DNA of 64,000 bases, taken from an uncultured virus (IMG/VR IMGVR_UViG_3300037067_014663). Taxonomy: Duplodnaviria; Heunggongvirae; Uroviricota; Caudoviricetes. The number at the start of each line of letters is the position of its first letter. The stretch's first letter is position 1. The stretch lies in IMG/VR virus record IMGVR_UViG_3300037067_014663. One strand, written 5' to 3'. Of this stretch, positions 11,625 to 58,458 are shown piece by piece. The notes under the pieces are model-generated. The model did no database searches. It saw nothing but the letters and a program-made list of their open reading frames with translations, and was not told the DNA's origin. A program made the position numbers and the translations under genes.

Positions 11625-12309
11625 AACTATTTATTACTTTAATTGTTTTCTCTTTTCTTGTTTCCTGATGCAATTTTGCATTTTTATCATATAATGCCTT
11701 ATGTTCTGGATTTCCCAAATTATATACTTTTGGATGTTGTTGATGGATTACCAAAACATCATCCGCAATTATTTTTTGTAATCCCAATCGGGTAATCCTA
11801 TCAACTAAATCATTATCATCATACCCAACACCCATAGCGTATCGTTCATCAAAACCACCCAATTTCTTCATATTTTCTTTTGTCATTGCAGCACAAAATG
11901 GATAATAAACAGGTTTAAAAATAGAATGGTTATACCAACCAAATCCAATCCCATACGTAGAAATTGAAACATAATTATTTTCAGTTACATTTTTTGCAAC
12001 ATAAGATAAAATATCATGAATATGAATACATTCGGGATTCTGTAGTAAAATAATATCACCATCTGCTTTAGCAATTCCCATATTATTTGGAATTCCCGAA
12101 TTAAAATACCATTTTTCCTCTTTTTTTACTCGAAAAACTTTTAAAAATGGAAAATCAATATCTAAATCATTTATTCTTTCTTCCATATTACTGGCATCAT
12201 CAATAACAATAATTTCATAATCATTATGTGCTGTTCTTGCAATTGATTTAAGAGTTTCAATCAATAATACTCTTCGATTATAATATGCCATCACAATCGA
12301 TATTTTCAT
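11617..12309 (-). CDS. Glycosyltransferase family 2
   Basis: ISIVMAYYNR..IIVIDDAS..GGFDERY..GYDDNDL. Confidence 0.9.
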   Translation of the reverse strand: MKISIVMAYYNRRVLLIETLKSIARTAHNDYEIIVIDDASNMEERINDLDIDFPFLKVFRVKKEEKWYFNSGIPNNMGIAKADGDIILLQNPECIHIHDILSYVAKNVTENNYVSISTYGIGFGWYNHSIFKPVYYPFCAAMTKENMKKLGGFDERYAMGVGYDDNDLVDRITRLGLQKIIADDVLVIHQQHPKVYNLGNPEHKALYDKNAKLHQETRKEKTIKVINSYE

Positions 12310-12887
12310 TCGCTACTATTTATTTCTATCATCATTTTTATAATCACACTATCTAAATTAAAAAAATTACTGCCAAGAACCGTTGGAGGATCATCAACTG
12401 TCCAATTTATTGGAAGATATTCCCGCCAATATTTAAAATAACTGCTAAAGTCCCTTAATCCAGGATCTTTATCCGTCATTAGTTTTATTTCTTTACCAAA
12501 TTTACCTGTTTTTGCAGAATATCCAGTATCATGTATAACAAGATAATCTGATGTATCCTTATATTTATTTATTGCCAACATCCGAACTTCCCAAGTAATA
12601 CTATCAACAAATACAACACCCCAATTTGTATTATCTTCTTTATAAAAATTTAATGTTGATTCAACATCAACTTGTAAAAATGAATGATCTTTTGATTTTA
12701 AAAACGCATATCTATCTAACCATTTTTGATTATGATCTACTGTAATTATTTTTCTTCCTTCGGCTACACTATGAATTAACTGAGTAGAAAAATCACCAGC
12801 ACCCAATTCTAAAATTGGTTTATTCCCACTTATTTTAATTGCTTCTAAAAGCACTTGTTGATGCGATCCTACTCCTACTATATCCAT
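12306..12887 (-). CDS. Class I SAM-dependent methyltransferase-like protein
   Basis: ILELGAGDFST..ITVDH..VFVDS..LVIHD. Confidence 0.7.
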   Translation of the reverse strand: MDIVGVGSHQQVLLEAIKISGNKPILELGAGDFSTQLIHSVAEGRKIITVDHNQKWLDRYAFLKSKDHSFLQVDVESTLNFYKEDNTNWGVVFVDSITWEVRMLAINKYKDTSDYLVIHDTGYSAKTGKFGKEIKLMTDKDPGLRDFSSYFKYWREYLPINWTVDDPPTVLGSNFFNLDSVIIKMMIEINSSE

Positions 12888-12889
12888 AA

Positions 12890-13978
12890 TTACTGCCCCA
12901 TTAATAAACGAATAACTGTATCTGAAACATTCAGTTTAAAATAATCATTATCTATTGACCAAGATTGTTTTATTTCTCCTATAGAATGATATGCTCGTAA
13001 AATATCTTCTTTTTTAGTTCCTGCCAAAATTAACGAACCACATTCCATTAACTCCTGACGCTCTGTCGTATTTCTTAAAACAATACATGGTTTACCAAAT
13101 AGAGAAGTTTCCTCTGGAACTGTGCCGGAATCCGTTAAAATTACTTTTGCATGTTTCTCTAAATAAACAAAATCAAAAAACCCAATCGGATCGGTTAATA
13201 TAACTTTATCAGAAAACTTTATTCCATGTTTTGCAAATTGGTCCTTAGTTCTCGGATGAAATGAATAAATAACCGGAAGATCCTCTGCAATTTCATTTAT
13301 TGCTTCAACAACCTGTTTTGATTTTTCTCTATTATCAACATTTTCTGTTCGATGATACGATAAAAGAGCGTACGGATTTGCAATACCCCTATCCCAAGTA
13401 TACGGCATAATCCCTAATCGCATCAAAATATCACTATCATCAATTTGTTTTTGATAATAACACAGCACTTCCCAAATTGGATTGCCTATTTTAAAAACAA
13501 AATTCTTATGAAATCTTTCATTAATAAGATTCTGTTTACTATTTTCTGTGTATGGTAAATTGTATAATGAACAAGAATCAATAACTTTTCTATTTGTTTC
13601 TTCCGGCACCTCTCCATCGTAACATCTATTTCCAGCTTCCATGTGATAAACAGGAATCCCCTTTTTAGCAGCCAATATTGCAAGTAATCCTGAATTTGTA
13701 TCCCCTAAAACCAAAACCTTATCTGGTTTTTCTTCATCTATTATTTTGTCAAAATGAAGAAAAGCATTTCCTATAAAATCCCCCAAACCATTTGTTTTTG
13801 GAAACATATAATCTGGTGTTCTTATTCCTAAATCTTTTAAAAAAATTGTGCTGAGATTTGGATCAAAATTTTGATTCGTATAAATCGTTATTTGTGTACA
13901 AACAGAATCCAATTTTGTTATTATTCGACTTAATCGAATAATTTCAGGGCGTGTGCCCATCAGTGTTAAAACTTTCAT
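12890..13978 (-). CDS. Non-hydrolysing UDP-N-acetylhexosamine 2-epimerase (WecB / FnlC-Cap5G-like)
   Basis: GTRPEIIRLS, GDTNS, HMEAGNRCYD..PEE.NR, HRTENVD, TDSGTVPEE, LRNTTERQE. Confidence 0.92.
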   Translation of the reverse strand: MKVLTLMGTRPEIIRLSRIITKLDSVCTQITIYTNQNFDPNLSTIFLKDLGIRTPDYMFPKTNGLGDFIGNAFLHFDKIIDEEKPDKVLVLGDTNSGLLAILAAKKGIPVYHMEAGNRCYDGEVPEETNRKVIDSCSLYNLPYTENSKQNLINERFHKNFVFKIGNPIWEVLCYYQKQIDDSDILMRLGIMPYTWDRGIANPYALLSYHRTENVDNREKSKQVVEAINEIAEDLPVIYSFHPRTKDQFAKHGIKFSDKVILTDPIGFFDFVYLEKHAKVILTDSGTVPEETSLFGKPCIVLRNTTERQELMECGSLILAGTKKEDILRAYHSIGEIKQSWSIDNDYFKLNVSDTVIRLLMGQ

Positions 13979-14739
13979 TTTACATAAATTTTATTCGTTT
14001 TTACTTTTATTCTATTTGGAAAACTTATACGTAATGCAGTAAGTAATTGTAAATTTCGTTTATTTGTGTATAATACTGGTTTGTGCCATTGATGAATGCA
14101 AAAAGGAGAATCTATCAAATGCAATTCTAATCCAAGATTTTTAACCCGATCAACAAATTCGTAATCATCATATCCTATACCTATTTCAAATTGCTCATCA
14201 TACCCAGAAAGTATTTCCATATCTTCCGTATTAATTGCAGCACAATATGGAATGAGTGTATAATTTGAAGAATGAGATCCCCAATAAGCATTGCCTACCT
14301 CTTTCGTAGAAAACCAATCCATTCCTTCTTCAATCTTTTTTGTTAACTCAGGACTCCCCATATATGTAGAAAAACTAATGTACGATTTTTCTTCCATATT
14401 AGTAAAAATGTAATTTAAAATATCCCCATTATGATAACATTCTGAACTATTAATTAGTATTGTATCCCCACTAACTTTACTAAATCCTATATTATAAGCA
14501 ATACATGGACCTCTCCACTTTTTATCTTTGCATGATAACACAAATAATTTAATCGGCAAATCTGGAAATAATTTATCAATATCATAAATTTGGTGTTCTT
14601 TACTGCTTCCATCATCTACAATAATTACTTCAATAGAATAATTACTTTTATAACGATTAATTGACTTTAATGTATTTAAAAGTAATTGCCTCCTATTATA
14701 GTAAGGTATCACAATTGATAACAATTTAATTTCTCTCAT
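13975..14739 (-). CDS. Glycosyltransferase family 2
   Basis: SIVIPYYNR..IIVDDGS..GYDEQF..GYDDYEF..HQWH; paralogue of 11617..12309. Confidence 0.9.
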   Translation of the reverse strand: MREIKLLSIVIPYYNRRQLLLNTLKSINRYKSNYSIEVIIVDDGSSKEHQIYDIDKLFPDLPIKLFVLSCKDKKWRGPCIAYNIGFSKVSGDTILINSSECYHNGDILNYIFTNMEEKSYISFSTYMGSPELTKKIEEGMDWFSTKEVGNAYWGSHSSNYTLIPYCAAINTEDMEILSGYDEQFEIGIGYDDYEFVDRVKNLGLELHLIDSPFCIHQWHKPVLYTNKRNLQLLTALRISFPNRIKVKTNKIYVK

Positions 14740-15556
14740 TTAAAATTTTATTTTTCCAGTACTCAAAAGTTAACATTTGCATATTTATAGTTTTTCTATT
14801 TAAAATAAACTCAAATTGATTTTGAAGAAATTCTTCTGTAACTTCCTCCCAATTATTAACAAAACAAATAGGTAAATTTTTATAAAATAAATAATTAGTA
14901 TTTTTTAATAGAATAGGAATACTACACATATACAAAGTTTCCCATACCCGATGCGTATCAATTCCATTACCTTCGGGACAAACAACAAATTTATGTTGAT
15001 ACACATTACAAATATATTTATTAAATTCTATTCCATTTTTACGATCACATTCTGTTGCAGTTACCCAAGGTTTACTATTAAAAAACGCATACGCAGTTTG
15101 TCTTTTATTTTTATTCGTTTTAATATCAAAATTAATATAAACTATATTTTTATAATTTTTTTGTTGTTCAAACACACATTCCATTTGGTCTTTTTTACAT
15201 AACGTTGGAAACCATCTGTCATTTTCTAAACCAATTGGTATTGACTCTATTTTTAAATTCACAACATCAACATTTGTTGTAAACCATTTTTTAACACAAG
15301 AAGGAACTCGAAAAGATTCATCAATATTTACATCGCTATTGTGTGAAATAACAATAATATGACCATTTGTAAACAGTTTTAAAATATCAAATAATTGCTT
15401 AACATACATCGTATGTGTATAAATAATTGAGTTGTTATTTAATTTATGTGCATTAAATGTGTTTGGCAATTTATAATAATCATCACTTGCTACCTCTTTC
15501 GGCGTAAAAACCATATCTGCAATTTCCCAAAATTTTTGCCCCTGAATCCAATCCAT
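14726..15556 (-). CDS. Exostosin (GT47)-like glycosyltransferase
   Basis: SHNSD, IPIGLEN, KFVVCPEGNGIDTHRVWETLYMCSIPI. Confidence 0.7.
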   Translation of the reverse strand: MDWIQGQKFWEIADMVFTPKEVASDDYYKLPNTFNAHKLNNNSIIYTHTMYVKQLFDILKLFTNGHIIVISHNSDVNIDESFRVPSCVKKWFTTNVDVVNLKIESIPIGLENDRWFPTLCKKDQMECVFEQQKNYKNIVYINFDIKTNKNKRQTAYAFFNSKPWVTATECDRKNGIEFNKYICNVYQHKFVVCPEGNGIDTHRVWETLYMCSIPILLKNTNYLFYKNLPICFVNNWEEVTEEFLQNQFEFILNRKTINMQMLTFEYWKNKILNERN

Positions 15557-15557
15557 T

Positions 15558-16337
15558 TTATTTCTTTTTAGTTTTTGACCAACTTACAGCCCAATGATGT
15601 AGAGCATACGAATTTGGTTGTATATATTTATAAGCATCCCCATTTTTTCTTACATTATTTGGAAATGGATAAAAGAAATCCGTAGGAAATGCAACAATTC
15701 CTTTTTTAAATCCCCGAACAATTGCAAAAAAATTCCGGGTAAAAAAGTAAGTGCCTGTTGTATTAAATACATTTTGCCACTTGTTTTCATCTAAATTATT
15801 CCAATGTTGTAACGAATGAACAATTTGTTGTAATATGGGATGTCCCGGAACACTTCCTATTAATCCAATGTACAATTCAACATCAGAAGGATAACCCACA
15901 CCCACAAAAAAATCTAAATACAACAATGGATCAAATGATTTTAAACATTCGAAATCGGTATCCGCATATACCCCACCAAATTGATTTAAGATATGATAAC
16001 GCAAAAAGTCAGATTTCTGTCCCATATTCTTTATTGAATCAAATAATTTTCTATTAGAAATATTAACATCATTAACATTATCATCTGTCCACAATTTATA
16101 TTCCCAATCAGGATTACATTTCTGCCACGTTTCCGTTAATTTTTTAAATTTATCCGGTATTGTACTGCCCAACCAAATCTGATGAATCTTTTTAGGTATT
16201 ACTTTATATTCCTTGTTTTCCGCAAAAACATAATTTTTATCAAAAAGAACACGCAACACTTTCCACTTTGGACTTTGATTATACAATTCCTGATTGAAAT
16301 CATACGATTTCTTAACTAATGAATAAAACAATTCCAT
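15558..16337 (-). CDS. GT32 (OCH1-like, DXD) glycosyltransferase
   Basis: IPKKIHQIWLG..NPDWEYKLWTD..SDFLRY..GGVYADTD..HHWAVSW. Confidence 0.9.
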   Translation of the reverse strand: MELFYSLVKKSYDFNQELYNQSPKWKVLRVLFDKNYVFAENKEYKVIPKKIHQIWLGSTIPDKFKKLTETWQKCNPDWEYKLWTDDNVNDVNISNRKLFDSIKNMGQKSDFLRYHILNQFGGVYADTDFECLKSFDPLLYLDFFVGVGYPSDVELYIGLIGSVPGHPILQQIVHSLQHWNNLDENKWQNVFNTTGTYFFTRNFFAIVRGFKKGIVAFPTDFFYPFPNNVRKNGDAYKYIQPNSYALHHWAVSWSKTKKK

Positions 16338-16338
16338 A

Positions 16339-16959
16339 CTATTTAATTTTTAAATAAAAAGCATCACCCCACCTTTTTGGAGTCATGTGTGTACACTCAC
16401 GACGAAACCCGAAATCTTTAAGATATTCATCTACTTCATGAATTAAACAACAATTTTTGTATAAATGTTCCTCATTTACTTCTGTATAAATATAATCCAT
16501 TTTAGTAATTAATGAACCAAAACTTTTGATAACATTCAATTCTACTCCCTGAACGTCTATATTAAGAAAATTGAAATCTGTTACATTATGTTTACCTATT
16601 TTAAAAAAATCATCCAAACGAATCATTTTGATTTCCTGATCCAGAACATATTTAATATTTGGATGATGAAATGTGTGTGTGCCTAAGTTTAAAATAGAAG
16701 AACTCTGCCCATCATTATTTGAAATATGTAAAATTGTTTTTTCTAAAGTATCATGAACACCCAAATTATATGCAATATGTCCCGATACAATTTCTATTCT
16801 TTTCTGTAATCTATCAAATACTTCTTTATTCGGTTCAAACCAAATCACTTTATTAAACCCCTGTTGAATATACCAATTTCTTTCCTGCCCTTCATGTGCC
16901 CCCACATGAATAACCCCTCTTCTTTCCTTCAAATATTTTGTAAAATTTGTAAATAGCAT
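16339..16959 (-). CDS. FkbM-family methyltransferase
   Basis: IHVGAHEGQE..WFEPN..SSSIL..FLNIDVQGVELNV..TEV..WGDAFY. Confidence 0.9.
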   Translation of the reverse strand: MLFTNFTKYLKERRGVIHVGAHEGQERNWYIQQGFNKVIWFEPNKEVFDRLQKRIEIVSGHIAYNLGVHDTLEKTILHISNNDGQSSSILNLGTHTFHHPNIKYVLDQEIKMIRLDDFFKIGKHNVTDFNFLNIDVQGVELNVIKSFGSLITKMDYIYTEVNEEHLYKNCCLIHEVDEYLKDFGFRRECTHMTPKRWGDAFYLKIK

Positions 16960-16963
16960 ACGT

Positions 16964-17746
16964 TTATAATATTAACCACCCTTCAGGATGTAAAAATTCT
17001 AAACACATTTCGTTTTGTTGTTCCTCGGTTAATCTCCATTCTTTTGGAGCAACCACAATCTTATTTGGATTATCATTCAGCATTGCTGCCCACCAACTAA
17101 AAGTGCTGTTTGCTATTATGTTATGTTTACAAAGTCGCATTAATTCAAAATCTAAATATTCGTTTAAATGAATAAATTGACATTCCCATCCCGTATCATC
17201 TATAAAATTTTTAATGCACCAATCAATATCATCACTAAAAACGAATATATTAGAAGAACTCTCAATTGTATTGTAAATAGCCCAACGATAATAATCTTTT
17301 GTTAGTATATTTATTTTGTCTTTAAAATCACCCCTTCTAACATGGATTGAAATAGATGCTGATTCATTTAAAATGATTTCTTTCCATTCTAAAAATTCCT
17401 TTGTGTAAAATTCTTTTTTCAATTTAAATTCCTCTTTTAAAATAGGCAGGATATGTTTAAAATATCTTGGATCTTGCCAATATCCATGAAAATTGAATGA
17501 TGTTACATTCGTCATATTTGGATTATACTTAACGTATTTCTCCAATATATTTTTCTGTGGAAGAAAATCGCTCGTTTTCACTTTTATATTAAATTTATCC
17601 AAAATATACGGACGATTTGTATTCTTACTACGACCGTACCAATTAATATTAAAACCAACATCTAATCCATTTTCCATCTGTGCCCGACCAAAAGCATACT
17701 GAAACAATTGATTTCCTAATCCACCACACACTTTTACTACATTCAT
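16964..17746 (-). CDS. Alpha-1,2-fucosyltransferase (GT11)
   Basis: GGLGNQLFQYA, GYWQ, SIHVRRGD, FSDDIDWC, IIANSTFSWWAA. Confidence 0.92.
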   Translation of the reverse strand: MNVVKVCGGLGNQLFQYAFGRAQMENGLDVGFNINWYGRSKNTNRPYILDKFNIKVKTSDFLPQKNILEKYVKYNPNMTNVTSFNFHGYWQDPRYFKHILPILKEEFKLKKEFYTKEFLEWKEIILNESASISIHVRRGDFKDKINILTKDYYRWAIYNTIESSSNIFVFSDDIDWCIKNFIDDTGWECQFIHLNEYLDFELMRLCKHNIIANSTFSWWAAMLNDNPNKIVVAPKEWRLTEEQQNEMCLEFLHPEGWLIL

Positions 17747-18438
17747 AATACATCCTTTAAATTAATTTTAGGGAACTCCTTAATTGCTGAATTAGGACAA
17801 ACATTAATAATCTGAATTCCCCTATGTTTAGCATCTTTGTAAATATCAATAAATCCTCGCAAATGTCGCTCAAAAGGCAACCCTTTATTATTTTTTACGG
17901 ATATTGTACTAAATCTATGATATAAATCGTGCCAATGTTGTCTATTTTCGGAATTTAATTCCATATCAAAACCAAGTAAAAATATTCGTTTTGCCCCAGC
18001 ATTTGCAGCAATGCTTATTGCCGCAGCACCACTATTCCCATTCCAAGAAACCATTTTTGGGTTTGGGGATATACCTCTTGGTTTTTTACTATCTTTTGAT
18101 AAATATTTAATCCAATTATGACCCTCAATACTGGGATGACACGTTACTTTTATTCCTACAAATTCAGATAATTTTTTTTGTTGGCTTAAAAAAAAACTAC
18201 TATCACCAAAAAATACAATATCAATCCAATCCCCTATTAAATATGCAACATTTACCCCAATAACATGTTTATCATGAAGAAAAGACATATATGGAGAATA
18301 CACACTCGGTGGGGATTCATTGTATACAACCGATTTAATCACACGATCGGGTATATCAAATTGTTTAGGTAAACTTGGTCCTCCCCCTAAAATCCAAACA
18401 TCCTCTTGATCCCACATTTTTGGAACTTGCCAAATCAT
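17743..18438 (-). CDS. Maf/DUF115-like (GT42-related) transferase
   Basis: ILGGGPSL..IGVN..NSGAAAISIA..GAKRIFLLGFD..IINVCPNSAI. Confidence 0.65.
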   Translation of the reverse strand: MIWQVPKMWDQEDVWILGGGPSLPKQFDIPDRVIKSVVYNESPPSVYSPYMSFLHDKHVIGVNVAYLIGDWIDIVFFGDSSFFLSQQKKLSEFVGIKVTCHPSIEGHNWIKYLSKDSKKPRGISPNPKMVSWNGNSGAAAISIAANAGAKRIFLLGFDMELNSENRQHWHDLYHRFSTISVKNNKGLPFERHLRGFIDIYKDAKHRGIQIINVCPNSAIKEFPKINLKDVL

Positions 18439-29374: not shown

Positions 29375-29400
29375 ATTTTCAATTTTTAAACTATTTTAAA

Positions 29401-29437
29401 AAGCTGTTTTAAAATCAAAATTGCTTTTGACTTAGTG
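29401..29437 (-). repeat. Dispersed 37-bp palindromic element, copy 2
   Basis: Minus strand CACTAAGTCAAAAGCAATTTTGATTTTAAAACAGCTT. Confidence 0.9.
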
Positions 29438-29455
29438 TAAGAACACTTTTACTAT

Positions 29456-29638: not shown

Positions 29639-31221
29639 TATGTTATCCTCCTTGCAATTCTTTTAGCTACTAAGTGATTAAAAGCCCCACTCCCAGCATC
29701 AATTTGATCCTTGTATTTCCCATACGGGAAAAACCGATATTCTTTTATAAAAGCATCATTCCATACACCCCGTTGTAAAAACACATTTCCATTATTTACC
29801 TGTACAGAATATGGAATAGCTCGTGTTTCTTTATCCCCTGTCGGCCTTTCTGCATAAATAGCAAATCCTGCCAAATTTCTTATAGTCCCTTCTGAACTTT
29901 CTTTGCCACTACTGCCTGGCTCTTGCTCAATCCACACAAATACATTATACCCATCCGCCTCCGCAGTCTCTCTTATTATTCTTTCACGTAAATCGGTACT
30001 CCATTGCCCTCTTTTAACATCCAAAACCAAAAACCTGTTATCAGATAATTTTGCCATTTTAACGCCCGCAGTATAACAACCCTTGCCTTGGGAACCTGCT
30101 TTATCCCAATACCGGAGAACTTGTACCTGACGAACACCTAATGGCAAAGAATCGATTATCTGGAAATGGTCAACATGGAACATGCCTCCACCTGGAGGAA
30201 CAGGATTTTGTCCTATTTGACCAGAAAAACCATATTGGCCCAAATCTGTTTCCAGATCCTTTAATGCTTTCCAAGATAAACGAACAGGGTCCAACAAATC
30301 ATCTACATAATAATCTTTTAATAATTTTCCTTTGTACTCTTCATTTTCAGGTTGTAATTGTTCCCGAAATGTTCTAATCTCTCCGGGCAAACTAATATGT
30401 TTTAAATTTTCTTTCTTTTTATCTAGCAAATGCCCACTTGGATCATCCTGATGTAATCTTTGCATCACAATAATCTTTGTAGATGCTTCTTTATCCGTAG
30501 TACGTGTGGGAAGTGTTTCATCAATCCACCTATTAGCATTTGCCAATTCTTTTTCTGATACGGCTTCGTATGGATTAAGTGGATCATCTATTATTAAAAT
30601 ATCCCCGTGGAACCCTGCCAAAGTACCCCCTACGGAAGTTGAAAACCTATTACCACCAACTTTGATCCTCGGTGCTTGCCCCGCTTTAATAAATTCTTTA
30701 GTAACTACCTTATAATTACTTTTTTGATCTTTGTCCTCCTTAATCTCTACGTCAGGATAAATCAATTTAAACTTATCACTTCGGATTAAATCACGACTAT
30801 ACTCGGCAGCTTCCAAAGATAATGCAGCAGAATATGAAGCTGTAATAAATCTCATCCACGACCATTTGGTCCAACACCAAACCGGAAATGCTATACTACA
30901 TACCAAAGTTTTTGTCATGCCGGGAGGCTCATTGATAATCAAATCATGTTCCTTTGGTAATCTTTTACTAACTTGGTAAGCAATTTGCTCCAATTGACTG
31001 CATAAATACGGAATGTGCCAATTCCCCTGGAATGGTTTTTGAGAAACTTCATTCCAGAAACAACGAAGGAAATTATATAGTGAAGCATCATTTAATTTGC
31101 GCAATGACTGGACAGGATTTTCCAGGGCCATTTTAATAATAGCGTCCCGATCCTCAGAACGGAAAGTTTTGTTTTCCTTTCTTGGATTAATCTTTTTGCT
31201 TATTGTAATTTCCCGCCCCAT
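29638..31221 (-). CDS. terL: Terminase large subunit
   Basis: IINEPPGMTKT (Walker A variant), ILIIDDP, MQRLHQDD, YWDKA, IEQEPGSSGK, KDQIDA. Confidence 0.95.
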   Translation of the reverse strand: MGREITISKKINPRKENKTFRSEDRDAIIKMALENPVQSLRKLNDASLYNFLRCFWNEVSQKPFQGNWHIPYLCSQLEQIAYQVSKRLPKEHDLIINEPPGMTKTLVCSIAFPVWCWTKWSWMRFITASYSAALSLEAAEYSRDLIRSDKFKLIYPDVEIKEDKDQKSNYKVVTKEFIKAGQAPRIKVGGNRFSTSVGGTLAGFHGDILIIDDPLNPYEAVSEKELANANRWIDETLPTRTTDKEASTKIIVMQRLHQDDPSGHLLDKKKENLKHISLPGEIRTFREQLQPENEEYKGKLLKDYYVDDLLDPVRLSWKALKDLETDLGQYGFSGQIGQNPVPPGGGMFHVDHFQIIDSLPLGVRQVQVLRYWDKAGSQGKGCYTAGVKMAKLSDNRFLVLDVKRGQWSTDLRERIIRETAEADGYNVFVWIEQEPGSSGKESSEGTIRNLAGFAIYAERPTGDKETRAIPYSVQVNNGNVFLQRGVWNDAFIKEYRFFPYGKYKDQIDAGSGAFNHLVAKRIARRIT

Positions 31222-31238
31222 TTTTTATGTCTTCAAAG

Positions 31239-31275
31239 AAGCTATTTTGATTTTAAAATTGCTTTTGACTTAGTG
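31239..31275 (-). repeat. Dispersed 37-bp palindromic element, copy 3 (upstream of terL)
   Basis: Minus strand CACTAAGTCAAAAGCAATTTTAAAATCAAAATAGCTT; identical to the 50973 copy. Confidence 0.9.
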
Positions 31276-31376
31276 TACCAACAGTTTCAAGTTTTTCAAC
31301 TTTAAAGTTTATGGTCGAATTTGTATAATAATTCAAAAATATTATCCAATTTGTAACTGTATATTCCCATTTCATC

Positions 31377-35518: not shown

Positions 35519-35845
35519 ATGAAAACTTATAAAACCGAATGGACAGATAACGACTTTAATAAAATCAACAAGGCAATTCAAAAATACTTTGGCGGTAAAA
35601 CCTTAATAAATCGTAGAAATGAAAATGTTTATTTCCCTGGCAACTTCTATGAGATTGAAAAAATTCTTGGTTTACCCTATACTTCGACTTCTATGTGCCC
35701 TATGATGTCATTGGACTGTAATGTGAATATCTATGCAGATGATTCAAAAAAATATCATTACAGTTACGTTGTTTTAAATGAAGTAAAAGACGTTATTTTA
35801 GTCGCTCGGGATAACGAAGAAAACGAAATTTACTTTAAGGTTTAA
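35519..35845 (+). CDS. Early hypothetical protein
   Basis: 108-aa ORF with an AT-rich start context. Confidence 0.7.
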   Translation: MKTYKTEWTDNDFNKINKAIQKYFGGKTLINRRNENVYFPGNFYEIEKILGLPYTSTSMCPMMSLDCNVNIYADDSKKYHYSYVVLNEVKDVILVARDNEENEIYFKV

Positions 35846-35913
35846 CCAGTCTAAAGTCCATTAAATTGTGATAGCTCCCTTAAACGGGAGTAAACAAACT
35901 TAAACTTACAACA

Positions 35914-36732
35914 ATGAAAACATGGTTACCAATATTTCCAGGATTTTACGGTACTTGGTATGAACCAAACGAAACCGATGAATTTAATTATATTAATGAG
36001 CAAAGAGAATCAATCCATATTGCGCCATTACCTTTTGAAGCTATAAAATGGGATTATGCCGCATACTACAATGAAGTTTCTAAAAATGCCTGTAACTACA
36101 TTGAAAACGTATTAGAAAACTTTGTTACTGCCATTAAATTTGAAGAAATACGTTCTCCAAAGGAATACAATTTTTCAAATGATGCAATAAACATTGAAGT
36201 TGAATTATCTGAAGAAAATATTATTGCAATTAAAACTTTTCTTTTTGATAATATTGAAAACTTCAAAAAGCACATTTCTAAAACTTACACAAGTTACGAC
36301 GGGTTTTTATCTTCTTACAGTAACGACGCAATTGACTGGTTAGACTATATTGACACTAATTTAGAACATAAACACAAATTAGGTTCAATATTACAATTCA
36401 TTTGCTATAAATTAAAAGACAATATCGACGAAATTATGCCCGAATTTACTTTAATGGATGTTTGTTTACAAGCTTCAAATTTTGATGAGTGCACAATATT
36501 TAACTATTGTCCTAACTGTAAGGAATTTTTTGACCCAGCTAACACAAAAGGAAATATTTGCAGTGATTGTTTAGAACAATCTATATTAGACTATAATATT
36601 ATCGTTTGTGCTCATTGCGGCCAAGAAATCACAAATAAATGGGCAAAAAGAGAATTTCAACACAAATTAAAGCATGGTTTTATTAAACCTACTGAAATTT
36701 TTTGTGATTTACACGAATTAATTTTAGCATAA
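35914..36732 (+). CDS. Hypothetical protein with C-terminal Cys-rich (Zn-binding) region
   Basis: PIFPGFY..SPKEYNFSND..TSYDGF; CPNC, CSDC, CAHC. Confidence 0.75.
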   Translation: MKTWLPIFPGFYGTWYEPNETDEFNYINEQRESIHIAPLPFEAIKWDYAAYYNEVSKNACNYIENVLENFVTAIKFEEIRSPKEYNFSNDAINIEVELSEENIIAIKTFLFDNIENFKKHISKTYTSYDGFLSSYSNDAIDWLDYIDTNLEHKHKLGSILQFICYKLKDNIDEIMPEFTLMDVCLQASNFDECTIFNYCPNCKEFFDPANTKGNICSDCLEQSILDYNIIVCAHCGQEITNKWAKREFQHKLKHGFIKPTEIFCDLHELILA

Positions 36733-50796: not shown

Positions 50797-50972
50797 GAAA
50801 CTGAAATAAGTATTGGTTTAATTGGTTTGGAGTGAAAGAGAGGAACGAGATGTGGATTGTCTTACTTGTGGTTTATCCCTATGTAGGCGTTAGTTAATGA
50901 CGAGTTCATTTGACTACCATGAAACGTTAGCTTTCACTCCTTTTTATTACTAAAACATCAAAACTGTTGTTA

Positions 50973-51009
50973 CACTAAGTCAAAAGCAATTTTAAAATCA
51001 AAATAGCTT
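50973..51009 (+). repeat. Dispersed 37-bp palindromic element, copy 8 (upstream of UDG-exonuclease)
   Basis: CACTAAGTCAAAAGCAATTTTAAAATCAAAATAGCTT. Confidence 0.9.
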
Positions 51010-51034
51010 CTTTAAATTACTTAAAAAATAAACA

Positions 51035-52291
51035 ATGGCTGGATTTTTCTCATCAGAAGAAACAAAACCAAAAAAGATAAAGGAACGTTCGTGTATTACT
51101 TGTGGTTTGTATAAAGATTGTGTCTCTCCCCGGATGAAACCATACGGTAATTTCAAACTCGGTATTCTGAATATTGCAGAAGGTAGCGGAGAAGTTGAAG
51201 ATTCCAATGGTAAACCATTTCAGGGACGTGCAGGAAAACTTTTACAACGTACCTATAGAAACTTGGGCATTGATTTGTTTGATGACTGTCTAAACATAAA
51301 TGCTGTTTCCTGTCGTCCTATAGATGCTAAAGGAAATAACCGAACTCCCACTAACGAAGAAATAATAACCTGTCGCAGACGAGTTTTAAAAGTAATTGAA
51401 GAATACAAACCAAAGGTAATAATACTTTTAGGGTTTTCTGCCATTTTTAGCGTCATAGGTGAACGATGGAAGAAAGAGATAGGGACTATTACCAAATGGA
51501 GAGGTTGGATGATCCCTGATCAGGATTTTGGTGCCTGGATATGTCCAACGTTTCATCCAAGTTATGTTGAAAGAGCAAAAGAAAAAACTGAAGTTGAAGA
51601 ATTAATCTGGAAACAGGATTTACAACAAGCATTTAATTTAGTTGAGGCCCCTTTTCCAAAATATAAGGAACCGGAAATTGAAGTAATTGAAGATTTGGAT
51701 CTACTTAATTATCAAACAACACATACGGATACATTTGGAAATACAAAATTTAGACACATCCCGGAATTAATTGCGTTTGACTATGAAACTACCGGGTTAA
51801 AACCACATGCAGAAGGACATGAAATCATTTGTTGTAGTGTTGCAGATAGTCCAGATCATGTGTACGTATTCATGATGCCAAAAACATGCAGGGAACGTAG
51901 ACCGTTTATAAATATTCTTTCTAATCCAAATGTTAAGAAAATTGCAAGTAATATGAAATTTGAACACTCTTGGAGTGCTTTTATGTTTAACCAACCAGTA
52001 GAAGGATGGGAATGGGACACTATGATAATGTCTCATATATTAGATAACCGAAGGAGTATCACCGGATTGAAATTTCAAACTTATGTTAATTTTGGTGTGA
52101 TTGATTATGCCAGTGAAATTGCCCCTTACCTTGAAGGGGATAAAAATAATGCAAATTCATTCAATCGGATTAAAGAATTATTGAAAATTCCAGGAGGGAA
52201 GGAGAAGTTGTTAAAATATAATGCATTGGATTCAATATTTGAATATCGATTAATGCTCAGACAACAAACATTATTAAAATTAAATAGTTAA
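51035..52291 (+). CDS. Family-4 uracil-DNA glycosylase plus 3'-5' exonuclease (N-terminal part of an SPO1-type DNA polymerase)
   Basis: CITCGL, IAEGSG..E..GKPFQGRAG, NAVSCRP, TFHPSY; exonuclease motifs FDYETTGL, NMKFE, YNALD. Confidence 0.9.
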   Translation: MAGFFSSEETKPKKIKERSCITCGLYKDCVSPRMKPYGNFKLGILNIAEGSGEVEDSNGKPFQGRAGKLLQRTYRNLGIDLFDDCLNINAVSCRPIDAKGNNRTPTNEEIITCRRRVLKVIEEYKPKVIILLGFSAIFSVIGERWKKEIGTITKWRGWMIPDQDFGAWICPTFHPSYVERAKEKTEVEELIWKQDLQQAFNLVEAPFPKYKEPEIEVIEDLDLLNYQTTHTDTFGNTKFRHIPELIAFDYETTGLKPHAEGHEIICCSVADSPDHVYVFMMPKTCRERRPFINILSNPNVKKIASNMKFEHSWSAFMFNQPVEGWEWDTMIMSHILDNRRSITGLKFQTYVNFGVIDYASEIAPYLEGDKNNANSFNRIKELLKIPGGKEKLLKYNALDSIFEYRLMLRQQTLLKLNS

Positions 52292-53297: not shown

Positions 53298-53392
53298 TGC
53301 TAACGTTGGCAATATGGCATCGAAAGCCAACCCCAACCTACGCTACAACGCATTGCCTTAATTTGGCTTTTGTGCTATATTGCGTGTTAGTG
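53298..53392 (+). repeat. attC-like imperfect inverted repeat 1
   Basis: GCTAAC..GCAATATGGCAT..AAAGCCAA / TTGGCTTT..GTGCTATATTGC..GTTAGTG. Confidence 0.75.
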
Positions 53393-53430
53393 TTTGTTAT
53401 TATTTTTGTAAACAATTTAAAATTAAAAAT

Positions 53431-53646
53431 ATGTGTATAATTTGCTCTGACCCAGACCTTGGACAACAATACCTCAATGCTATTGATAGCGCGAGGTGTC
53501 ATCTAAAAATTGCCGAAGATGCACTTTTTAAATTGGGTAAAAAATATCCAAAAAGTAATTACGATTCATGTCATAAAAAGTTAGTAAAAATCAGAAAGTC
53601 TATTAATGAAGTAGAAGAACGTCGGGAGTCTAATAATAAACACTAA
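53431..53646 (+). CDS. Cassette-borne hypothetical protein
   Basis: MCIICSDPDLG..; ends in AAACACTAA, the reverse complement of the cassette start. Confidence 0.7.
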   Translation: MCIICSDPDLGQQYLNAIDSARCHLKIAEDALFKLGKKYPKSNYDSCHKKLVKIRKSINEVEERRESNNKH

Positions 53647-53667
53647 ACTATCAAAATATAACGACTT

Positions 53668-53982
53668 ATGAACAAAGAACAAAACTCGAATGAACCACAA
53701 AAACAGCAATTAAATATAGCTAGTGTCAGTGGTAGTAGTAATTTAGCGTTGGAGAAAGCACAAGAAATGATGTTGCTTCCAATAAAAGATTTACCTAAAG
53801 AAGCAATAGAATATTTAAAGTTTCTTTCAAGTAAAGTAGGAATGTGCATGGAAGTTTGCTTAACTGCTTATTGCGCATATAATCAAGCTGTTTTAAATAT
53901 GCCATGTGATGATGCTTTATATATTTTACAAGATACAGAGGATGGTCGTAAATGGTTTGTGGCAATGGGTTATTGTCACTAA
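53668..53982 (+). CDS. Cassette-borne hypothetical protein
   Basis: Leader MNKEQNSNEPQKQQLNIASVS; stop lies within CACTAAC. Confidence 0.7.
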   Translation: MNKEQNSNEPQKQQLNIASVSGSSNLALEKAQEMMLLPIKDLPKEAIEYLKFLSSKVGMCMEVCLTAYCAYNQAVLNMPCDDALYILQDTEDGRKWFVAMGYCH

Positions 53983-54017
53983 CAGTGGCATTCGTTGCAG
54001 ATTTAAAAAGATAAATT

Positions 54018-54170
54018 ATGATTGAAAGAACAACACCAGAAAACATTAATAGCCTTATACATGAACCAGCTTATAAAGAACTGCACTGCAAGAAAAAGAA
54101 AATATTTATTGACCCACAACCACCAGAAGACCAAGTTAAAGAATGTGACGGTTTTGAACCTTGCAGTTAA
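54018..54170 (+). CDS. Small hypothetical protein (50 aa)
   Basis: MIERTTPENI..CDGFEPCS; stop lies within GTTAAC. Confidence 0.45.
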   Translation: MIERTTPENINSLIHEPAYKELHCKKKKIFIDPQPPEDQVKECDGFEPCS

Positions 54171-54295
54171 CGGTCACAGATATACGTAGTTTTTTTCTTA
54201 AATTGGAACACAAAAATTAAATAATATGAATACAGAAAATAAAAGCACAGACGTTGGTAACACAGATAAAAAATTACGTATATCTGATGTTAGAG
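54165..54295 (+). repeat. attC-like imperfect inverted repeat 2
   Basis: GTTAAC..CAGATATACGTAGTTTTTT / AAAAAATTACGTATATCTG..GTTAGAG; arms 18/19 complementary. Confidence 0.8.
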
Positions 54296-54459
54296 AACGT
54301 TTATGTCTGGGTAATTTCATAATAAACAGACCTGAAGAATGGGATTTAGAAACTGTAAAATTAGAAATACGAGATTATGACTATGATTCAACATCAATTA
54401 GTATAGAAGACCTTAGATTACTACACACTTACATAGGTGAGATTTTAAATGCACGCTAA
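54226..54459 (+). CDS. Cassette-borne hypothetical protein
   Basis: ATG lies in the loop of repeat 2; stop lies within GCTAAC. Confidence 0.7.
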   Translation: MNTENKSTDVGNTDKKLRISDVRERLCLGNFIINRPEEWDLETVKLEIRDYDYDSTSISIEDLRLLHTYIGEILNAR

Positions 54460-54680
54460 CGGTTTGCATAGCAATCAATATAGGCAATCGGTTTTTATTT
54501 AAAATTTTTACTAAAAACTAAAATAAGATGAATGATAATTTAAAATTCAGAGGCAAATCGTTAGAAAACAATCAATGGGGTTCTTTTCTTAACAGTTTTG
54601 AAAAAACTGAGGAGCGTGGGCAAAAAATTAAATAAAAAAGATTTATTAAGCACTAACCTTGCTACGAAGAAAGGCTATTG

Positions 54681-54798
54681 CACACAACGGTGAGTATAAC
54701 AAACGTTTAACGAACTTTAGATTGAAACAAATAACTTAAATATTAATTACCGACCTTAAAAATAACTACCGACAAATGTTTGTTATACATTATTATAG
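54681..54798 (+). repeat. attC-like imperfect inverted repeat 3
   Basis: CACACAAC..GTATAACAAACGTTT / AAATGTTTGTTATAC..ATTATAG (degenerate right core). Confidence 0.65.
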
Positions 54799-54830
54799 TG
54801 AGTTTTTAAGTGAGGGCAAAACGAAATAAA

Positions 54831-55091
54831 ATGCAGGAAATTAAATTATCAGAAGAAATTGCAATGTTAGAAGAAAAGTACCTAAAAAGTGAAAGAGAGC
54901 TTGGGGAACTTATTGCTACAATGTGGGTAAACTTTGATGGTAAAATAGGTGATAAAGTGTTAACATCTGAAGACAGGCCCAAGCGTGCGAGCCAATTATT
55001 TATTAAAATATGTGAACACTATATAGATAAGATAAAGGAACTAGAAGAAAAGATACCTTCAAGGCCTGTAACAACCGGTGGGTATATGTGA
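54831..55091 (+). CDS. Cassette-borne hypothetical protein
   Basis: MQEIKLSEE..; runs into repeat 4. Confidence 0.65.
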   Translation: MQEIKLSEEIAMLEEKYLKSERELGELIATMWVNFDGKIGDKVLTSEDRPKRASQLFIKICEHYIDKIKELEEKIPSRPVTTGGYM

Positions 55092-55161
55092 TGTGCGCCC
55101 ACTATGAAATTAAATAACAGCACTACACTAACAGGCGCATGGCATATATACCGTGTTATAC
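55069..55161 (+). repeat. attC-like imperfect inverted repeat 4
   Basis: TAACAAC..GGTATATGTGATGTGCGCC / GGCGCATGGCATATATACC..GTTATAC. Confidence 0.7.
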
Positions 55162-55231
55162 GCTTTTAATTTTTATAAAATGGAAAAACCGAAATACAGC
55201 ACGTATTATCATTTGTTTTTTATTACTGATT

Positions 55232-55483
55232 ATGAATACTTACAATAAAAGAACTTGGCTAAATAAAGAAGATTCACCTTCGCTTGGAAGCGTTGTTGCA
55301 TTTGATTGCGATATTAGATATTCAGAAGGAAGTGAAAGAACTATTTTTTTGGCAATATCAGATTGTAATCGTACTGTGAAAATTATTAAAAATACTGAAA
55401 ATATTGAAGAATATATTAATAAATTAAAGTTGTTAAAATCAGAAATTGAATTATTTATAAATCATTTAAACCAAACAAAATGA
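55232..55483 (+). CDS. Hypothetical protein
   Basis: MNTYNKRTWLN..LAISDCNRTV..YINKLKLL. Confidence 0.7.
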   Translation: MNTYNKRTWLNKEDSPSLGSVVAFDCDIRYSEGSERTIFLAISDCNRTVKIIKNTENIEEYINKLKLLKSEIELFINHLNQTK

Positions 55484-55884
55484 TAAAAATATTAAGTATT
55501 AAGGGAATAAAAAAAGGGAACATAGTCACAAGAGTATACCCAGCTAATGGTTATTCCGGTGACAGTTCGTATATTGGAATGAAGATGGAGCTAATTAAAC
55601 TTACTAAAACTGAAATAATTTTAAAGAGCTTAGAAGGTAAAGAAAACGACCAAATATATCTTTCTTTAAAAAATTGGGAGTTTGGATGGGTACAATATAA
55701 ATTGTCTGGCGATGAAAAATATAAAAAATCTAAATATTCCGAACGTAGAGGACAATTGAGAGTTCAATATGTTTATTTAGGGTTTGAATTAGATAAATTA
55801 AGGGGAAGAAATTATCCCGATGACAAGTTTGGCGATTATCTTATGATATGTCGTTATTTAGAAGAATATGGATACAGTTGTTGA
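55480..55884 (+). CDS. Hypothetical protein
   Basis: 134 aa; ATGA-type overlap with the upstream gene. Confidence 0.7.
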   Translation: MIKILSIKGIKKGNIVTRVYPANGYSGDSSYIGMKMELIKLTKTEIILKSLEGKENDQIYLSLKNWEFGWVQYKLSGDEKYKKSKYSERRGQLRVQYVYLGFELDKLRGRNYPDDKFGDYLMICRYLEEYGYSC

Positions 55885-55966
55885 TAAAAATGGCATGTTA
55901 TGTATCTGGCGCATTTTCAGGCACATAGCACGATACGAAGCAAGGTAATCTTATTATTTTTTTAGG

Positions 55967-56475: not shown

Positions 56476-58458
56476 ATGAAGAAAATAGGGATAGTATTGA
56501 TAATGATTTTATTATCATCAAAATTATTTGCTCCTAATGATGTGCGTTCAACATCAAAAAATTGGAAAATAGAATACAAACAAATAATTAAAGAACAAAC
56601 AAATGTATTATTGATAGAAATAAAATCAATAGAGACTTGGCATGATTCATTAAATTACAAAAAAGGAAACCCATACAAAAAAGTAAATTCAATTGGGGCA
56701 ATGGGTGGTTGGCAACACATGCCAGGAACCCTTCGATGGTTAGGTTATCGTGATTCTACTTTTAAACGTTTTTTGAATAGCAAAGAATTGCAAAAAAAAT
56801 ATGCAATTAAATTATTAATTTCAAATTTGCATCAATTAACAGTAAGAAGTAAGAAATATAATCTAACACCAATAGATTACATTGGAATGCGAATAGACAC
56901 AATTGAAGTTACTTTATCTGGTTTATTGGGGGCTTCATGGATTGCCGGAGTTGGTGGGGTGCAAAGATTGCTTGCAAGAGGACACAATGCTTCGGATGGC
57001 AATATGACAACAAAAGATTATTTATATAAATTCAGAAATATTATGAATATTAATCCAAAAACAAAAGAAGCTTACGAATTGATGCATCAAGGAATTTTGG
57101 CTTTAGCCAGGGCAGAACAACAAGGAATTCGTGTAGATGTTCCATACGTTGAAAGAAAAATGCAATTTTTAACCCGGAGAATTCATCGTTTAGAAGCAGA
57201 TTTTAAAGACACACAATTTTACAAAGATTGGGAAAAAGCAACACCCCCCGGAAAACTGAATATTAATTCTCCCACACAACTTAGTAATTTTCTTTATAAA
57301 GTAAAAGGAATTACACCGCCTAAATTTACTAAAAGCAGCACTGATGAAAATCCAAAGGGGAGTTCAGATAAGGAAACATTAATCCAATTAAATATACCTG
57401 AGCTTAATTTGTTAATTGAACGGGATAAACTAATCCGTTTACGTGATGTTAATTTAGATGGATATATGCGAGAACAGGTAAACGGATATATCCATCCGTT
57501 TTTTAATCTACATCTTGCAAGAACATATAGATCAAGCAGTTCCAATCCAAACTTTCAAAATATACCTATCAGAGACGAAGAGAGTATGCAAATATGTCGG
57601 GGGGCATTATATCCCCGTCCGGGACATCAGCTTTTAGAGATTGATTTCGGATCATTAGAGGTACGTGTTGCAGCATGTTATCATAAGGACCCAACTATGT
57701 TAGAATATATTAACAATCCAAAATCTGACATGCATACAGATATGGCAAAACAAATCTTTATGTTAGATAAATTAGATAAAAGCATTTCTTCACACAACAT
57801 ACTTCGGCAAGCAGCAAAAAATGGATTTGTATTTCCACAGTTTTATGGGGATTATTTTAAAAACTGTGCTGAAAATATGGCTATAACCTGGGGCAAATTA
57901 CCAAAAAGTAGATGGAAACCAGGTCAGGGGATTCAAATAGAGGAAGGTTGCTATTTATCAGATCACTTAATAGCACAAGGAATAAAATCTTTTGATAAGT
58001 TTACAAATCATTTAGAAGATATTGAACATGATTTTTGGAATAATCGTTTTCCTGTGTATGCTCAATGGAAAGAAGATTTTTATGAAGAATATCAAAAACA
58101 AGGTTATGTTGATATGTTTACTGGGTTTCGTTGTAGTGGTGTTATGCGAAAGAATGAAGTTATTAATTCACCAATTCAGGGAGCAGCTTTCCATTGTTTA
58201 TTATTTTCATTTATTGAATTGGATAAGGTACAACATAAACAGGAATGGGATTCAAAATTAATCGGTCAAATACATGATTCTGCAATGATTGATTGTAATC
58301 CTTCCGAACTGCAACATGTGGCTAAAGTAGCAAAAAGGATTACTTGTGAACTTCTTCCAAAAACGTGGGATTGGATTATTGTTCCACTTGATATTGATAT
58401 GGCTGTAAGTTCGGTTGATAAATCGTGGGCAGAAAAAGAAAAATTTAAAATAGGATAA
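56476..58458 (+). CDS. polA: Signal-peptide lysozyme-like domain (56476-57042) fused in frame to a family A DNA polymerase domain (57043-58458)
   Basis: N part: signal peptide, KSIET..VNSIGAMGGWQ..FLNSKELQ..EVTLSGLLGASW. C part: TYRSSSSNPNFQNIP, motif A DFGSLEVR, motif B RQAAKNGFVFPQFYG, NSPIQG, motif C QIHDS. Confidence 0.9.
   Translation: MKKIGIVLIMILLSSKLFAPNDVRSTSKNWKIEYKQIIKEQTNVLLIEIKSIETWHDSLNYKKGNPYKKVNSIGAMGGWQHMPGTLRWLGYRDSTFKRFLNSKELQKKYAIKLLISNLHQLTVRSKKYNLTPIDYIGMRIDTIEVTLSGLLGASWIAGVGGVQRLLARGHNASDGNMTTKDYLYKFRNIMNINPKTKEAYELMHQGILALARAEQQGIRVDVPYVERKMQFLTRRIHRLEADFKDTQFYKDWEKATPPGKLNINSPTQLSNFLYKVKGITPPKFTKSSTDENPKGSSDKETLIQLNIPELNLLIERDKLIRLRDVNLDGYMREQVNGYIHPFFNLHLARTYRSSSSNPNFQNIPIRDEESMQICRGALYPRPGHQLLEIDFGSLEVRVAACYHKDPTMLEYINNPKSDMHTDMAKQIFMLDKLDKSISSHNILRQAAKNGFVFPQFYGDYFKNCAENMAITWGKLPKSRWKPGQGIQIEEGCYLSDHLIAQGIKSFDKFTNHLEDIEHDFWNNRFPVYAQWKEDFYEEYQKQGYVDMFTGFRCSGVMRKNEVINSPIQGAAFHCLLFSFIELDKVQHKQEWDSKLIGQIHDSAMIDCNPSELQHVAKVAKRITCELLPKTWDWIIVPLDIDMAVSSVDKSWAEKEKFKIG

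Follow-up and report, generated by a model that had tools for sequence, protein, structure and literature searches.

A stretch of 64,000 nucleotides (nt) from an uncultured virus (IMG/VR record IMGVR_UViG_3300037067_014663), referred to here as the window, was analysed with respect to a 4-kb run of small open reading frames (ORFs) located between its exonuclease and methyltransferase (MTase) genes and its polymerase ORF. Two ORFs in this run, starting at 53668 and 54226, begin with N-terminal leaders encoded by short repeat-like modules, which an earlier note on this DNA had taken for recombination sites of gene cassettes. All features described below for this run are on the plus strand.

The ORF at 54226-54459, which encodes 77 amino acids (aa), is headed by a hairpin designated module C. 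The left core of the module, TAAC (54168-54171), provides with its TAA the stop codon of a 50-aa ORF (54018-54170) and marks the left border of the mobile unit described below, homology between the window and the contig L008 beginning at 54168. It is followed by the left arm (54177-54195), an A-rich loop (54196-54267) containing the 5' leader, the ATG at 54226 and the first 14 codons, the right arm (54268-54286), which translates as KKLRIS, and the right core GTTA (54289-54292). The arms are 19 nt long and 95% complementary and enclose 72 nt, and the DNA of the loop is conserved in other phages. The earlier reading of this site, with the ATG in the loop of the palindrome and translation running through the right arm (AAA AAA TTA CGT ATA TCT GAT GTT AGA, KKLRISDVR) so that GTT at 54289-54291 encodes Val, was confirmed. 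This residue is Val22, and the core forms the joint between a common leader (residues 1-22, from the module) and a gene-specific body; the ORF has no second in-frame ATG. The cassette body, GTTAGAG...GCTAAC, occupies 54289-54460 and ends in a 3' TAAC (54457-54460) that contains the stop codon.

Among 29 homologues of the 77-aa protein in the protein collection, residues K15-R25 (DKKLHISDVRER) are almost invariant and the first 13 residues are variable. A model obtained with AlphaFold2 (AF2) had a mean predicted local distance difference test (pLDDT) score of 55.7, too poor for a fold search, with the lowest values (<50) for residues 1-17. Distant homologues in L011, L012 and L016 start at an ATG of their own, 8-10 codons before the conserved core, and have no hairpin, while those in L009 and L010 carry another leader (...KQCDIHV) from another hairpin that likewise ends in GTTA. 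L008 combines the leader of the window with an L009-type body, the switch being located within GTTAGA. Homology between the window and L009 spans exactly 54288-54461, i.e. from T-GTTA to TAAC-G, and the unit lies upstream of the MTase homologue in L009 and downstream of the MTase in the window. The loop of the C-type module has grown by insertions to ~230-250 nt in L008 (477-726) and L007 (2772-3003), where the original ATG is cut off and the expanded loop provides a new N-terminus, a transmembrane helix in L008 and a 45-residue extension in L007.

The other ORF (53668-53982; 104 aa) consists of the leader MNKEQNSNEPQKQQLNIASV and a body, and is preceded by the remnant of a module of a different family (type 2, module C being of type 1). 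Comparison with L178, L154, L149, L200 and L202 identified the remnant of the loop, with the 5' leader, at 53640-53667, the left arm and TAAC being missing; comparison with type-2 copies placed a right-arm remnant, CAGCAATTAAATATAGCTAGT, together with a degenerate core, GTCA instead of the canonical GTTA, at 53704-53728. The stop codon of the preceding ORF (53380-53646) falls inside conserved type-2 loop sequence. The leader lies well within the type-2 family (nearest: L178, L154, L149, L202 and L206), and the GTCA form of the core was encountered, among 80 fetched type-2 loci, only in the near-identical contig L163. Translation from ATG 53668 does read QQLNIASVS across GTCA (53725-53728), with GTC (53725-53727) as Val, as the earlier note had stated. 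This site has no palindrome, the DNA fold of 53640-53740 having a z-score of -0.04. From these comparisons the copy appears to be the fossil of a real module, immobilised through loss of the left arm and mutation of the core to GTCA. The 104-aa body has a distant homologue in a 362-kb contig (L098), where the protein starts with a short N-terminus of its own and a module is absent. The idea that the two window leaders are paralogues was rejected, as their local DNA score of 19 equals the genomic median and they belong to two different module families.

Leader families in other phages

Type-1 modules were sought by matching 20 nt of the module C right arm exactly against viral contigs, and type-2 modules with a degenerate 22-nt pattern, which returned 104 stretches, 80 of which were fetched. 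Contigs L001, L003, L004, L006, L019 and L097 are 99.9% identical to the window and therefore uninformative for comparison, and the nearest related record, G001, does not reach the cassette region. The exact search yielded 47 stretches in ~40 viral contigs of 4-324 kb, several of which contain two or three copies 670-1060 nt apart. All 47 are in frame and encode a leader that begins with Met and ends DKK/NEK-LHISDV, followed by complete divergence after GTTA into bodies that form 30 unrelated clusters. The upstream loop is conserved too and, as it was outside the search pattern, serves as an internal control against chance matches. A leader resembling that of the 53668 ORF, MLENENLNEAENPQLNIGAV, was met downstream of type-1 bodies. 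Among the 80 type-2 stretches, 64 encode a leader beginning with Met and ending QLNIxxV, attached to 44 unrelated body clusters; the other matches are due to chance or to in-frame read-through from longer upstream ORFs. Read-through loci (L164/L208, L173/L196/L209, L174/L204/L214/L221, L176 and L160), in which a long upstream ORF runs through QLNIxxV into the next body with no nearby Met, look like two units fused in frame across the junction. Since both window leaders belong to module families that are widespread in other phages, they represent more than chance similarity.

Pairwise identity among cluster representatives anchored on GTTA is 1.0 at the core and reaches a background of ~0.30 from position +5, except for (A/C)GT at +9 to +11. 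In the leader frame, 29/30 type-1 and 44/44 type-2 clusters remain open over at least 29 codons, while the other two frames are open to this extent in 2/30 and 1/30 and in 4/44 and 0/44, respectively; the first 12 body codons are free of ATG in 21 of the 30 type-1 and 31 of the 44 type-2 clusters. The homology switch that the earlier note had predicted at the Val codon was thus found, unrelated proteins with a common leader diverging at the GTTA core in 30 and 44 groups, and its proposal that the repeat supplies start codon and N-terminal leader is upheld by the occurrence of the same leaders on 74 unrelated body clusters, with the frame open in 73 of them. The single reading frame at the crossover proved common without being universal: GTT is read as Val in at least four module types, but hairpin D of the window and the second module of L109 are read as xxG TTA. 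The signature L-x-I-x-x-V of the leaders is best read as what the conserved right end of the site (TTR NNT ATA NNN NNT GTT A) encodes in frame. A different motif, resembling TTTTTGTGCGGTGG(G/C)AAA, is shared ~25-50 nt past GTTA by 'self-starting' cassettes (L009 3110-3168, and L110, L122 and L125 downstream of GTTA), and may be a promoter or leader element of these.

The mobile unit and its folding strand

Pairs of loci with the same body and different upstream sequence numbered 5 for type 1 and 16 for type 2. In these pairs the module is kept, with an identity of 0.88 and 0.94 against a background of 0.82 and 0.80, and pairwise comparison of the loci yielded no pair with the same upstream sequence and a different body. 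Identity between loci begins at the AAC of the left core and ends just past the 3' TAAC, and one contig contains the same module and body twice in different contexts (L213 and L223). Because module and body stay together in 21/21 informative pairs, the site would belong to the downstream gene; the unit is best described as AAC-module-GTTA-body-TA, in which the hairpin is the 5' site of the downstream gene and not the 3' site of the upstream cassette. The suggestion that cassette order decides whether a gene is expressed and which N-terminus it receives is not supported by these pairs, in which the module remains with its body whatever lies upstream. Retention of the leader by homologues regardless of their upstream neighbour, which the earlier note had itself named as evidence to the contrary, was looked for and found (21 pairs, with 0 of the reverse kind). 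Classical integron cassettes, as that note remarked, normally carry their own start; the cassette does carry its own start here, inside its recombination site. Exchange at GTTA itself was seen but appears to be rarer, the 77-aa body of the window standing behind two different modules (L008 versus L009/L010).

The two ends of a body are mutually complementary. When the 12 nt after GTTA were compared with the 12 nt before the body's own 3' TAAC, complementarity averaged 9.3/12, as against 5.0/12 for 1023 cross pairs, and was at least 10 in 22/31 bodies, with a G.T on the plus strand as the recurrent mismatch. In 13/31 bodies the 3' TAAC contributes its TAA as the stop codon. Within the 77-aa family, own-end complementarity is 9-10/10 in L007, L008, L009 and L010 and 7/12 in the window; the 54226 cassette appears to be nearly intact, with a decayed 3' end.

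Left arms were identified by local alignment, an anchored stem score having missed many of them owing to the asymmetric spacer, and were found in 34/47 type-1 and 51/64 type-2 copies. When 42 distinct type-2 modules were aligned, pairing was seen in 94.8% of cells, as opposed to 28-47% with the partner slid; four pairs change on both sides (13 cells; reached in 0/500 shuffles), and G.U is fixed at two positions on the plus strand (40/42 and 42/42). As these fixed pairs would be A.C mismatches on the opposite strand, the coding strand is taken to be the folding strand. Compensatory arm changes occur in L118, L120 and L009, and the other module types in these contigs, like the compact hairpins of L102, L116 and L117, retain the shape although their arms differ. 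Across hairpins of 49-126 nt the AAC...GTT cores are conserved and the arm sequence is free, as in integrons. Taken from this pattern of substitutions, the hairpin appears to be real and under selection. Loop-encoded codons depart from consensus at positions 1/2/3 with frequencies of 0.14/0.06/0.13, and the position of the ATG differs between module subtypes, a pattern compatible with a leader whose main constraints are those of a nucleic acid (A-rich, unstructured, in frame).

Differences between related genomes involve complete units, the breakpoints falling at the cores, again as in integrons. In public metagenome runs holding the phage, one X1 contig matches only 53301-53389 of the window (hairpin A, from TAAC to GTTA) and continues into unlike sequence, and in one X5 contig position 53389 is fused to a homologue of the window sequence beginning at 55904, immediately after a second, solo GTTA at 55900-55903. 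The latter joint points to a co-occurring relative that lacks the 2.5-kb block 53390-55903, within which both leader genes lie, between two GTTA cores. Both variants are single low-depth contigs, and most joints with short sides were disregarded.

Remaining hairpins, recombinase genes and gene layout

Four further hairpins of the array, A, D, E and F, are long-range and imperfect with TAAC...GTTA ends, and their internal mismatches are all G.T on the plus strand. Hairpin A (53301-53389) contains no start codon, the next ATG being at 53431. Hairpin D (54457-54563), with a 12-bp stem, has an ATG at 54528 in its loop, from which xxG TTA is read into a 35-aa ORF of uncertain status. Hairpin E (54697-54785) has a 15-bp stem, and the next gene begins after it, at 54810 or 54831; hairpin F (55069-55158) includes several of the G.T pairs. 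Fold z-scores were -1.85 (plus strand) and -2.34 (minus strand) for hairpin C, and -2.51 and -1.39 for hairpin A. Stems closed by TAAC/GTTA account for 6/113 pairs in the window (5.3%, four of them within 2 kb), compared with 1.7% for all 4-mers, a modest enrichment; an earlier, stricter anchored scan of the window was not above Markov shuffles. A search of the window hairpins against Rfam gave no relevant family, weak miRNA-like matches on hairpin E reflecting its long stem only. By eye, the loops displayed no clear Bacteroidota -33/-7 motif, and no T-run followed the stems. Contigs break at window positions 54580-54660 in all four metagenome runs, and the summed word depth there is ~7-55x that of the flanks, which indicates that this short stretch is repeated in many other genomes of the samples.

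A candidate recombinase, with a match to PF00589, was found in the related viral record G008, where a 277-aa ORF comes immediately after about nine such hairpins in a row on its own strand. It scores best against Xer models, and the integron-integrase model gave 156.9 bits in two stretches against a cut-off of 265.

The window has a G+C content of 31.5%, and its genes are arranged as in tailed phages of lytic type. Structural genes (portal, terminase, tail tube, tape measure and a glycosyltransferase block) are on the minus strand, and replication genes (SNF2 helicase, sigma factor, AAA ATPase, UDG/3'-5' exonuclease ORF, N6/N4 DNA methyltransferase, family A polymerase ORF, AntA and RecA) are on the plus strand. 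Among named sequences, the closest in DNA are methyltransferase genes from phages of Polaribacter and Flavobacterium, and the window is part of a lytic-type phage, kin of Flavobacteriia phages. Its family A DNA polymerase is split into the UDG/3'-5' exonuclease ORF (51035-52291) and the polymerase ORF (56476-58458), 4 kb apart with the cassette block between them; in the latter ORF, ~190 N-terminal residues, beginning with a signal-peptide-like stretch, lie outside the Pfam polymerase match. About ten glycosyltransferase, sulfotransferase, FkbM methyltransferase and UDP-GlcNAc 2-epimerase genes at 9622-18438 (minus strand), located within the structural module between head and tail genes, suggest modification of virion or host-surface glycans. 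A match to the type-P3 twister ribozyme (35839-35906, plus strand; 42.6 bits, Rfam gathering score 39.9) is flanked by the early-region ORFs 35519-35845 and 35914-36732. A repeat of ~70 nt (84-93% identical), located at 50960-51030 (plus strand) before the exonuclease ORF and in inverted copies at 31220-31287 and 29382-29450 (both minus strand) near the terminase region, may be a shared promoter or regulatory element.

Interpretation, alternatives and precedents

We consider it probable, at about 0.65, that the array between the split polymerase genes consists of partly decayed small-gene cassettes of an integron-like system widespread in uncultured phages, in which the loop ATG, the right arm and GTT would start leader-body fusions and a recombinase would act on the hairpins. 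A cassette of this system would have two parts: a hairpin of 114-126 nt on the coding strand, in which 5'-(T/C)AAC and a short, asymmetric spacer are followed by two arms of ~20 nt around an A-rich loop of ~70 nt and finally by T-GTTA-3', and a gene body that opens at GTTA and closes with a 3' TAAC of its own. In some of the module families the loop would contribute the ATG and 8-17 codons, to which the right arm and the core GTT would add ~7 codons, and most leader-headed bodies, having no start of their own, would be translated as leader-body fusions. A tyrosine recombinase (Xer-like, usually acting in trans) would cut the folded plus strand at the 5' AAC, as IntI cuts the bottom strands of attC sites, and a cut at this position would keep the site with the downstream gene. 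The plus strand would then correspond to the attC bottom strand, and a presumed circular form would add 16 bp of own-end pairing to the stem of the module. The leader peptide would be chiefly a by-product of a nucleic-acid site, not a functional tag. Translation in Bacteroidota needs an unstructured A-rich initiation region, which the module may provide.

Several observations weigh against this interpretation. Both search patterns fixed most of the right arm, the conservation of which is partly by construction, so that only the free columns and the left arm count. The leader is kept without a left arm in 13/47 type-1 and 13/64 type-2 copies, and leader DNA can evidently persist without the hairpin. 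An ATG stands directly after GTT in 8/30 and 8/44 bodies, where translation could start instead. Fold z-scores of single hairpin sequences (-1.4 to -2.5) are modest, and TAAC/GTTA hairpins were not enriched in 78 loci of phages linked to the window by the exonuclease gene (3/1510 pairs), which were for this reason unsuitable for comparison. The own-end complementarity of the 77-aa body is weak in the window, and in the own-end test no other cassette between 53 and 56 kb passed, the array being decayed. No PF00589 match, and hence no recombinase, was found among the scanned window ORFs of at least 90 aa, and PF00589 was present in only one of eight related viral records, all of which are incomplete fragments. 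Finally, one published phage site that has the shape of these hairpins, P12002L_attC1 (see below), had no verified junction with IntI1 (PMC9892861, in the part of the text available).

As an alternative, the hairpins might act mainly in mRNA, either in translational coupling, with the stem melted by a ribosome terminating at the TAA of TAAC, or as an RNase site, and might spread by homologous recombination as PeSL elements do. The wobble pairs are indeed all G.U-compatible on the sense strand, and in 13/31 cases the base of the stem includes the upstream stop codon; moreover, according to the sections available of the respective papers, attC stems affect translation of the downstream cassette and short attC ORFs relieve this effect (PMC8876359), and PeSLs mediate modular shuffling and mini-circles (PMC2839356). 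However, an RNA role would leave unexplained the body-specific terminal inverted repeats of 12+4 nt, the invariant AAC/GTT cores with free arms, the exact borders and the variant deleted from GTTA to GTTA, and as the main explanation we regard it as unlikely. A role in RNA may exist alongside one in DNA, the two not being mutually exclusive.

Quite unlikely, in our view, is that the leader is a functional N-terminal peptide, targeting proteins for example to the capsid for injection like the internal proteins of T4, with swaps by homologous recombination in leader DNA and the hairpin secondary. Such a peptide would account for many unrelated small proteins with one N-terminus, and the T4 internal proteins offer a parallel, being described, in the portion of the source consulted, as a diverse set in which only the targeting sequence is conserved (PMC3012670). 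The copies that keep their leader without a left arm and the almost invariant residues encoded by the right arm in the 77-aa family also agree with it. Against this, loop codons lack the third-position excess, leader sequence and ATG position vary by subtype, and other genes of these arrays are separated by compact hairpins that have the same ends but no leader; covariation of the arms, G.T pairs fixed on one strand, terminal inverted repeats of the bodies and exact AAC/TAAC borders would not be expected of a peptide signal. It is highly improbable that the module represents a miniature transposable element bounded by TAAC...GTTA inverted repeats, inserted before or into genes and read out of at its right end: although its ~22-nt terminal inverted repeats, its length of ~120 nt and its presence in many genomes with several copies each would suit one, there is no target-site duplication, module and body form one unit (21 pairs versus 0), the frame is open into the body in 73/74 clusters, and random insertion would not give the 5' body pattern GTTA-N5-(A/C)GT with matching 3' ends.

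In its organisation the system is similar to an integron whose site has been placed 5' of the gene, on the strand that folds. As with attC sites, the hairpins are imperfect, of similar length and conserved only at AAC...GTT, with an asymmetric spacer, single-strand folding and features that mark the strand; as with integron cassettes, the ends are mutually complementary and the stop codon often lies within the site; and as in sedentary chromosomal integrons with near-identical attC repeats, conserved sites separate unrelated ORFs in arrays of small genes. In integrons, however, attC is 3' of the ORF and folds from the bottom (non-coding) strand, whereas the present site is 5' of the ORF, on the coding and folding strand, and can encode start and leader. 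The own-end complementarity is 16 nt here as opposed to ~7, the system is found in lytic-type phages, and IntI with its specific extra domain was not found, the only linked recombinase seen being the 277-aa Xer-like enzyme of G008, below the IntI cut-off.

Clusters of attC sites without an integrase (CALINs) have been reported in phages, including Polaribacter phage P12002L (Qi et al., 2023, PMC9892861; this and the following statements refer to the part of the article that was accessible). The N6_N4 MTase of the P12002L CALIN is 72% identical in DNA to the MTase of the window, and the P12002L_attC1 oligo corresponds to a compact hairpin of the present kind, TAACGG...ATTGTTAGGC, at L100 5075-5123. 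This site was predicted by HattCI only and is the sole one of six without a verified IntI1 junction. The sites are treated there as ordinary attC, and the terms 'start codon', 'translation' and 'N-termin' have 0 occurrences in the accessible text. The nearest precedents are the ORFs of attI1 and attC and the aacA4 fusions: in the text available of PMC8876359, ORF-11 and ORF-18 of attI1 span the crossover point, attC sites contain short ORFs, ~20% of cassettes have no initiation region, and fusions of aacA4 are described. There too the recombination site gives initiation signals, an ORF spans the crossover and proteins acquire foreign N-termini; as far as that text extends, in class 1 integrons these are either short ORFs that serve coupling or fusions arising by accident at a single platform site, whereas here the in-frame leader is a regular structure of at least 74 unrelated cassette families. 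The T4-type PeSL cassettes (Arbiol et al., 2010, PMC2839356) are likewise small stem-loop expression cassettes beside non-essential small genes, in hyperplastic regions subject to modular shuffling, but in the sections seen they consist of a promoter and a terminator moved by homologous recombination; they do not encode a start codon or leader, and they lack both AAC/GTT cores and inverted repeats specific to a body. A literature search, which did not extend to the supplements of bioRxiv preprints, found no publication describing site-encoded leaders on phage cassettes.

A bolder extension, which we hold to be improbable, is that phages of Bacteroidota, together with related phages, possess a 'site-first' version of the integron. 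The folded site would be a standard gene head (initiation region, ATG and a tag of 15-22 residues), any ORF without a head would, once captured at GTTA, be expressed immediately and bear the common N-terminal tag, and the tag could be put to use, for example in virion packaging or common regulation. If true, this would constitute a natural plug-and-play expression and tagging system.

The integron-like interpretation would mean that one element both captures and expresses genes. As the recombination hairpin would carry the translation start, very short ORFs with no start of their own would be expressed wherever the unit lands. A consequence for annotation is that hundreds of small phage proteins would have true N-termini that are shared and encoded by the site, and such proteins should therefore be cut at the Val of GTTA for clustering and structure prediction. 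The present joints, which are exact (GTTA, one frame) and number 74 independent examples, bear on a question posed by integrons, namely how a site is joined to an ORF at the birth of a cassette. Since many array cassettes are DNA methylases and likely counter-defence genes, the system would also bear on the arms races between phages and their hosts.

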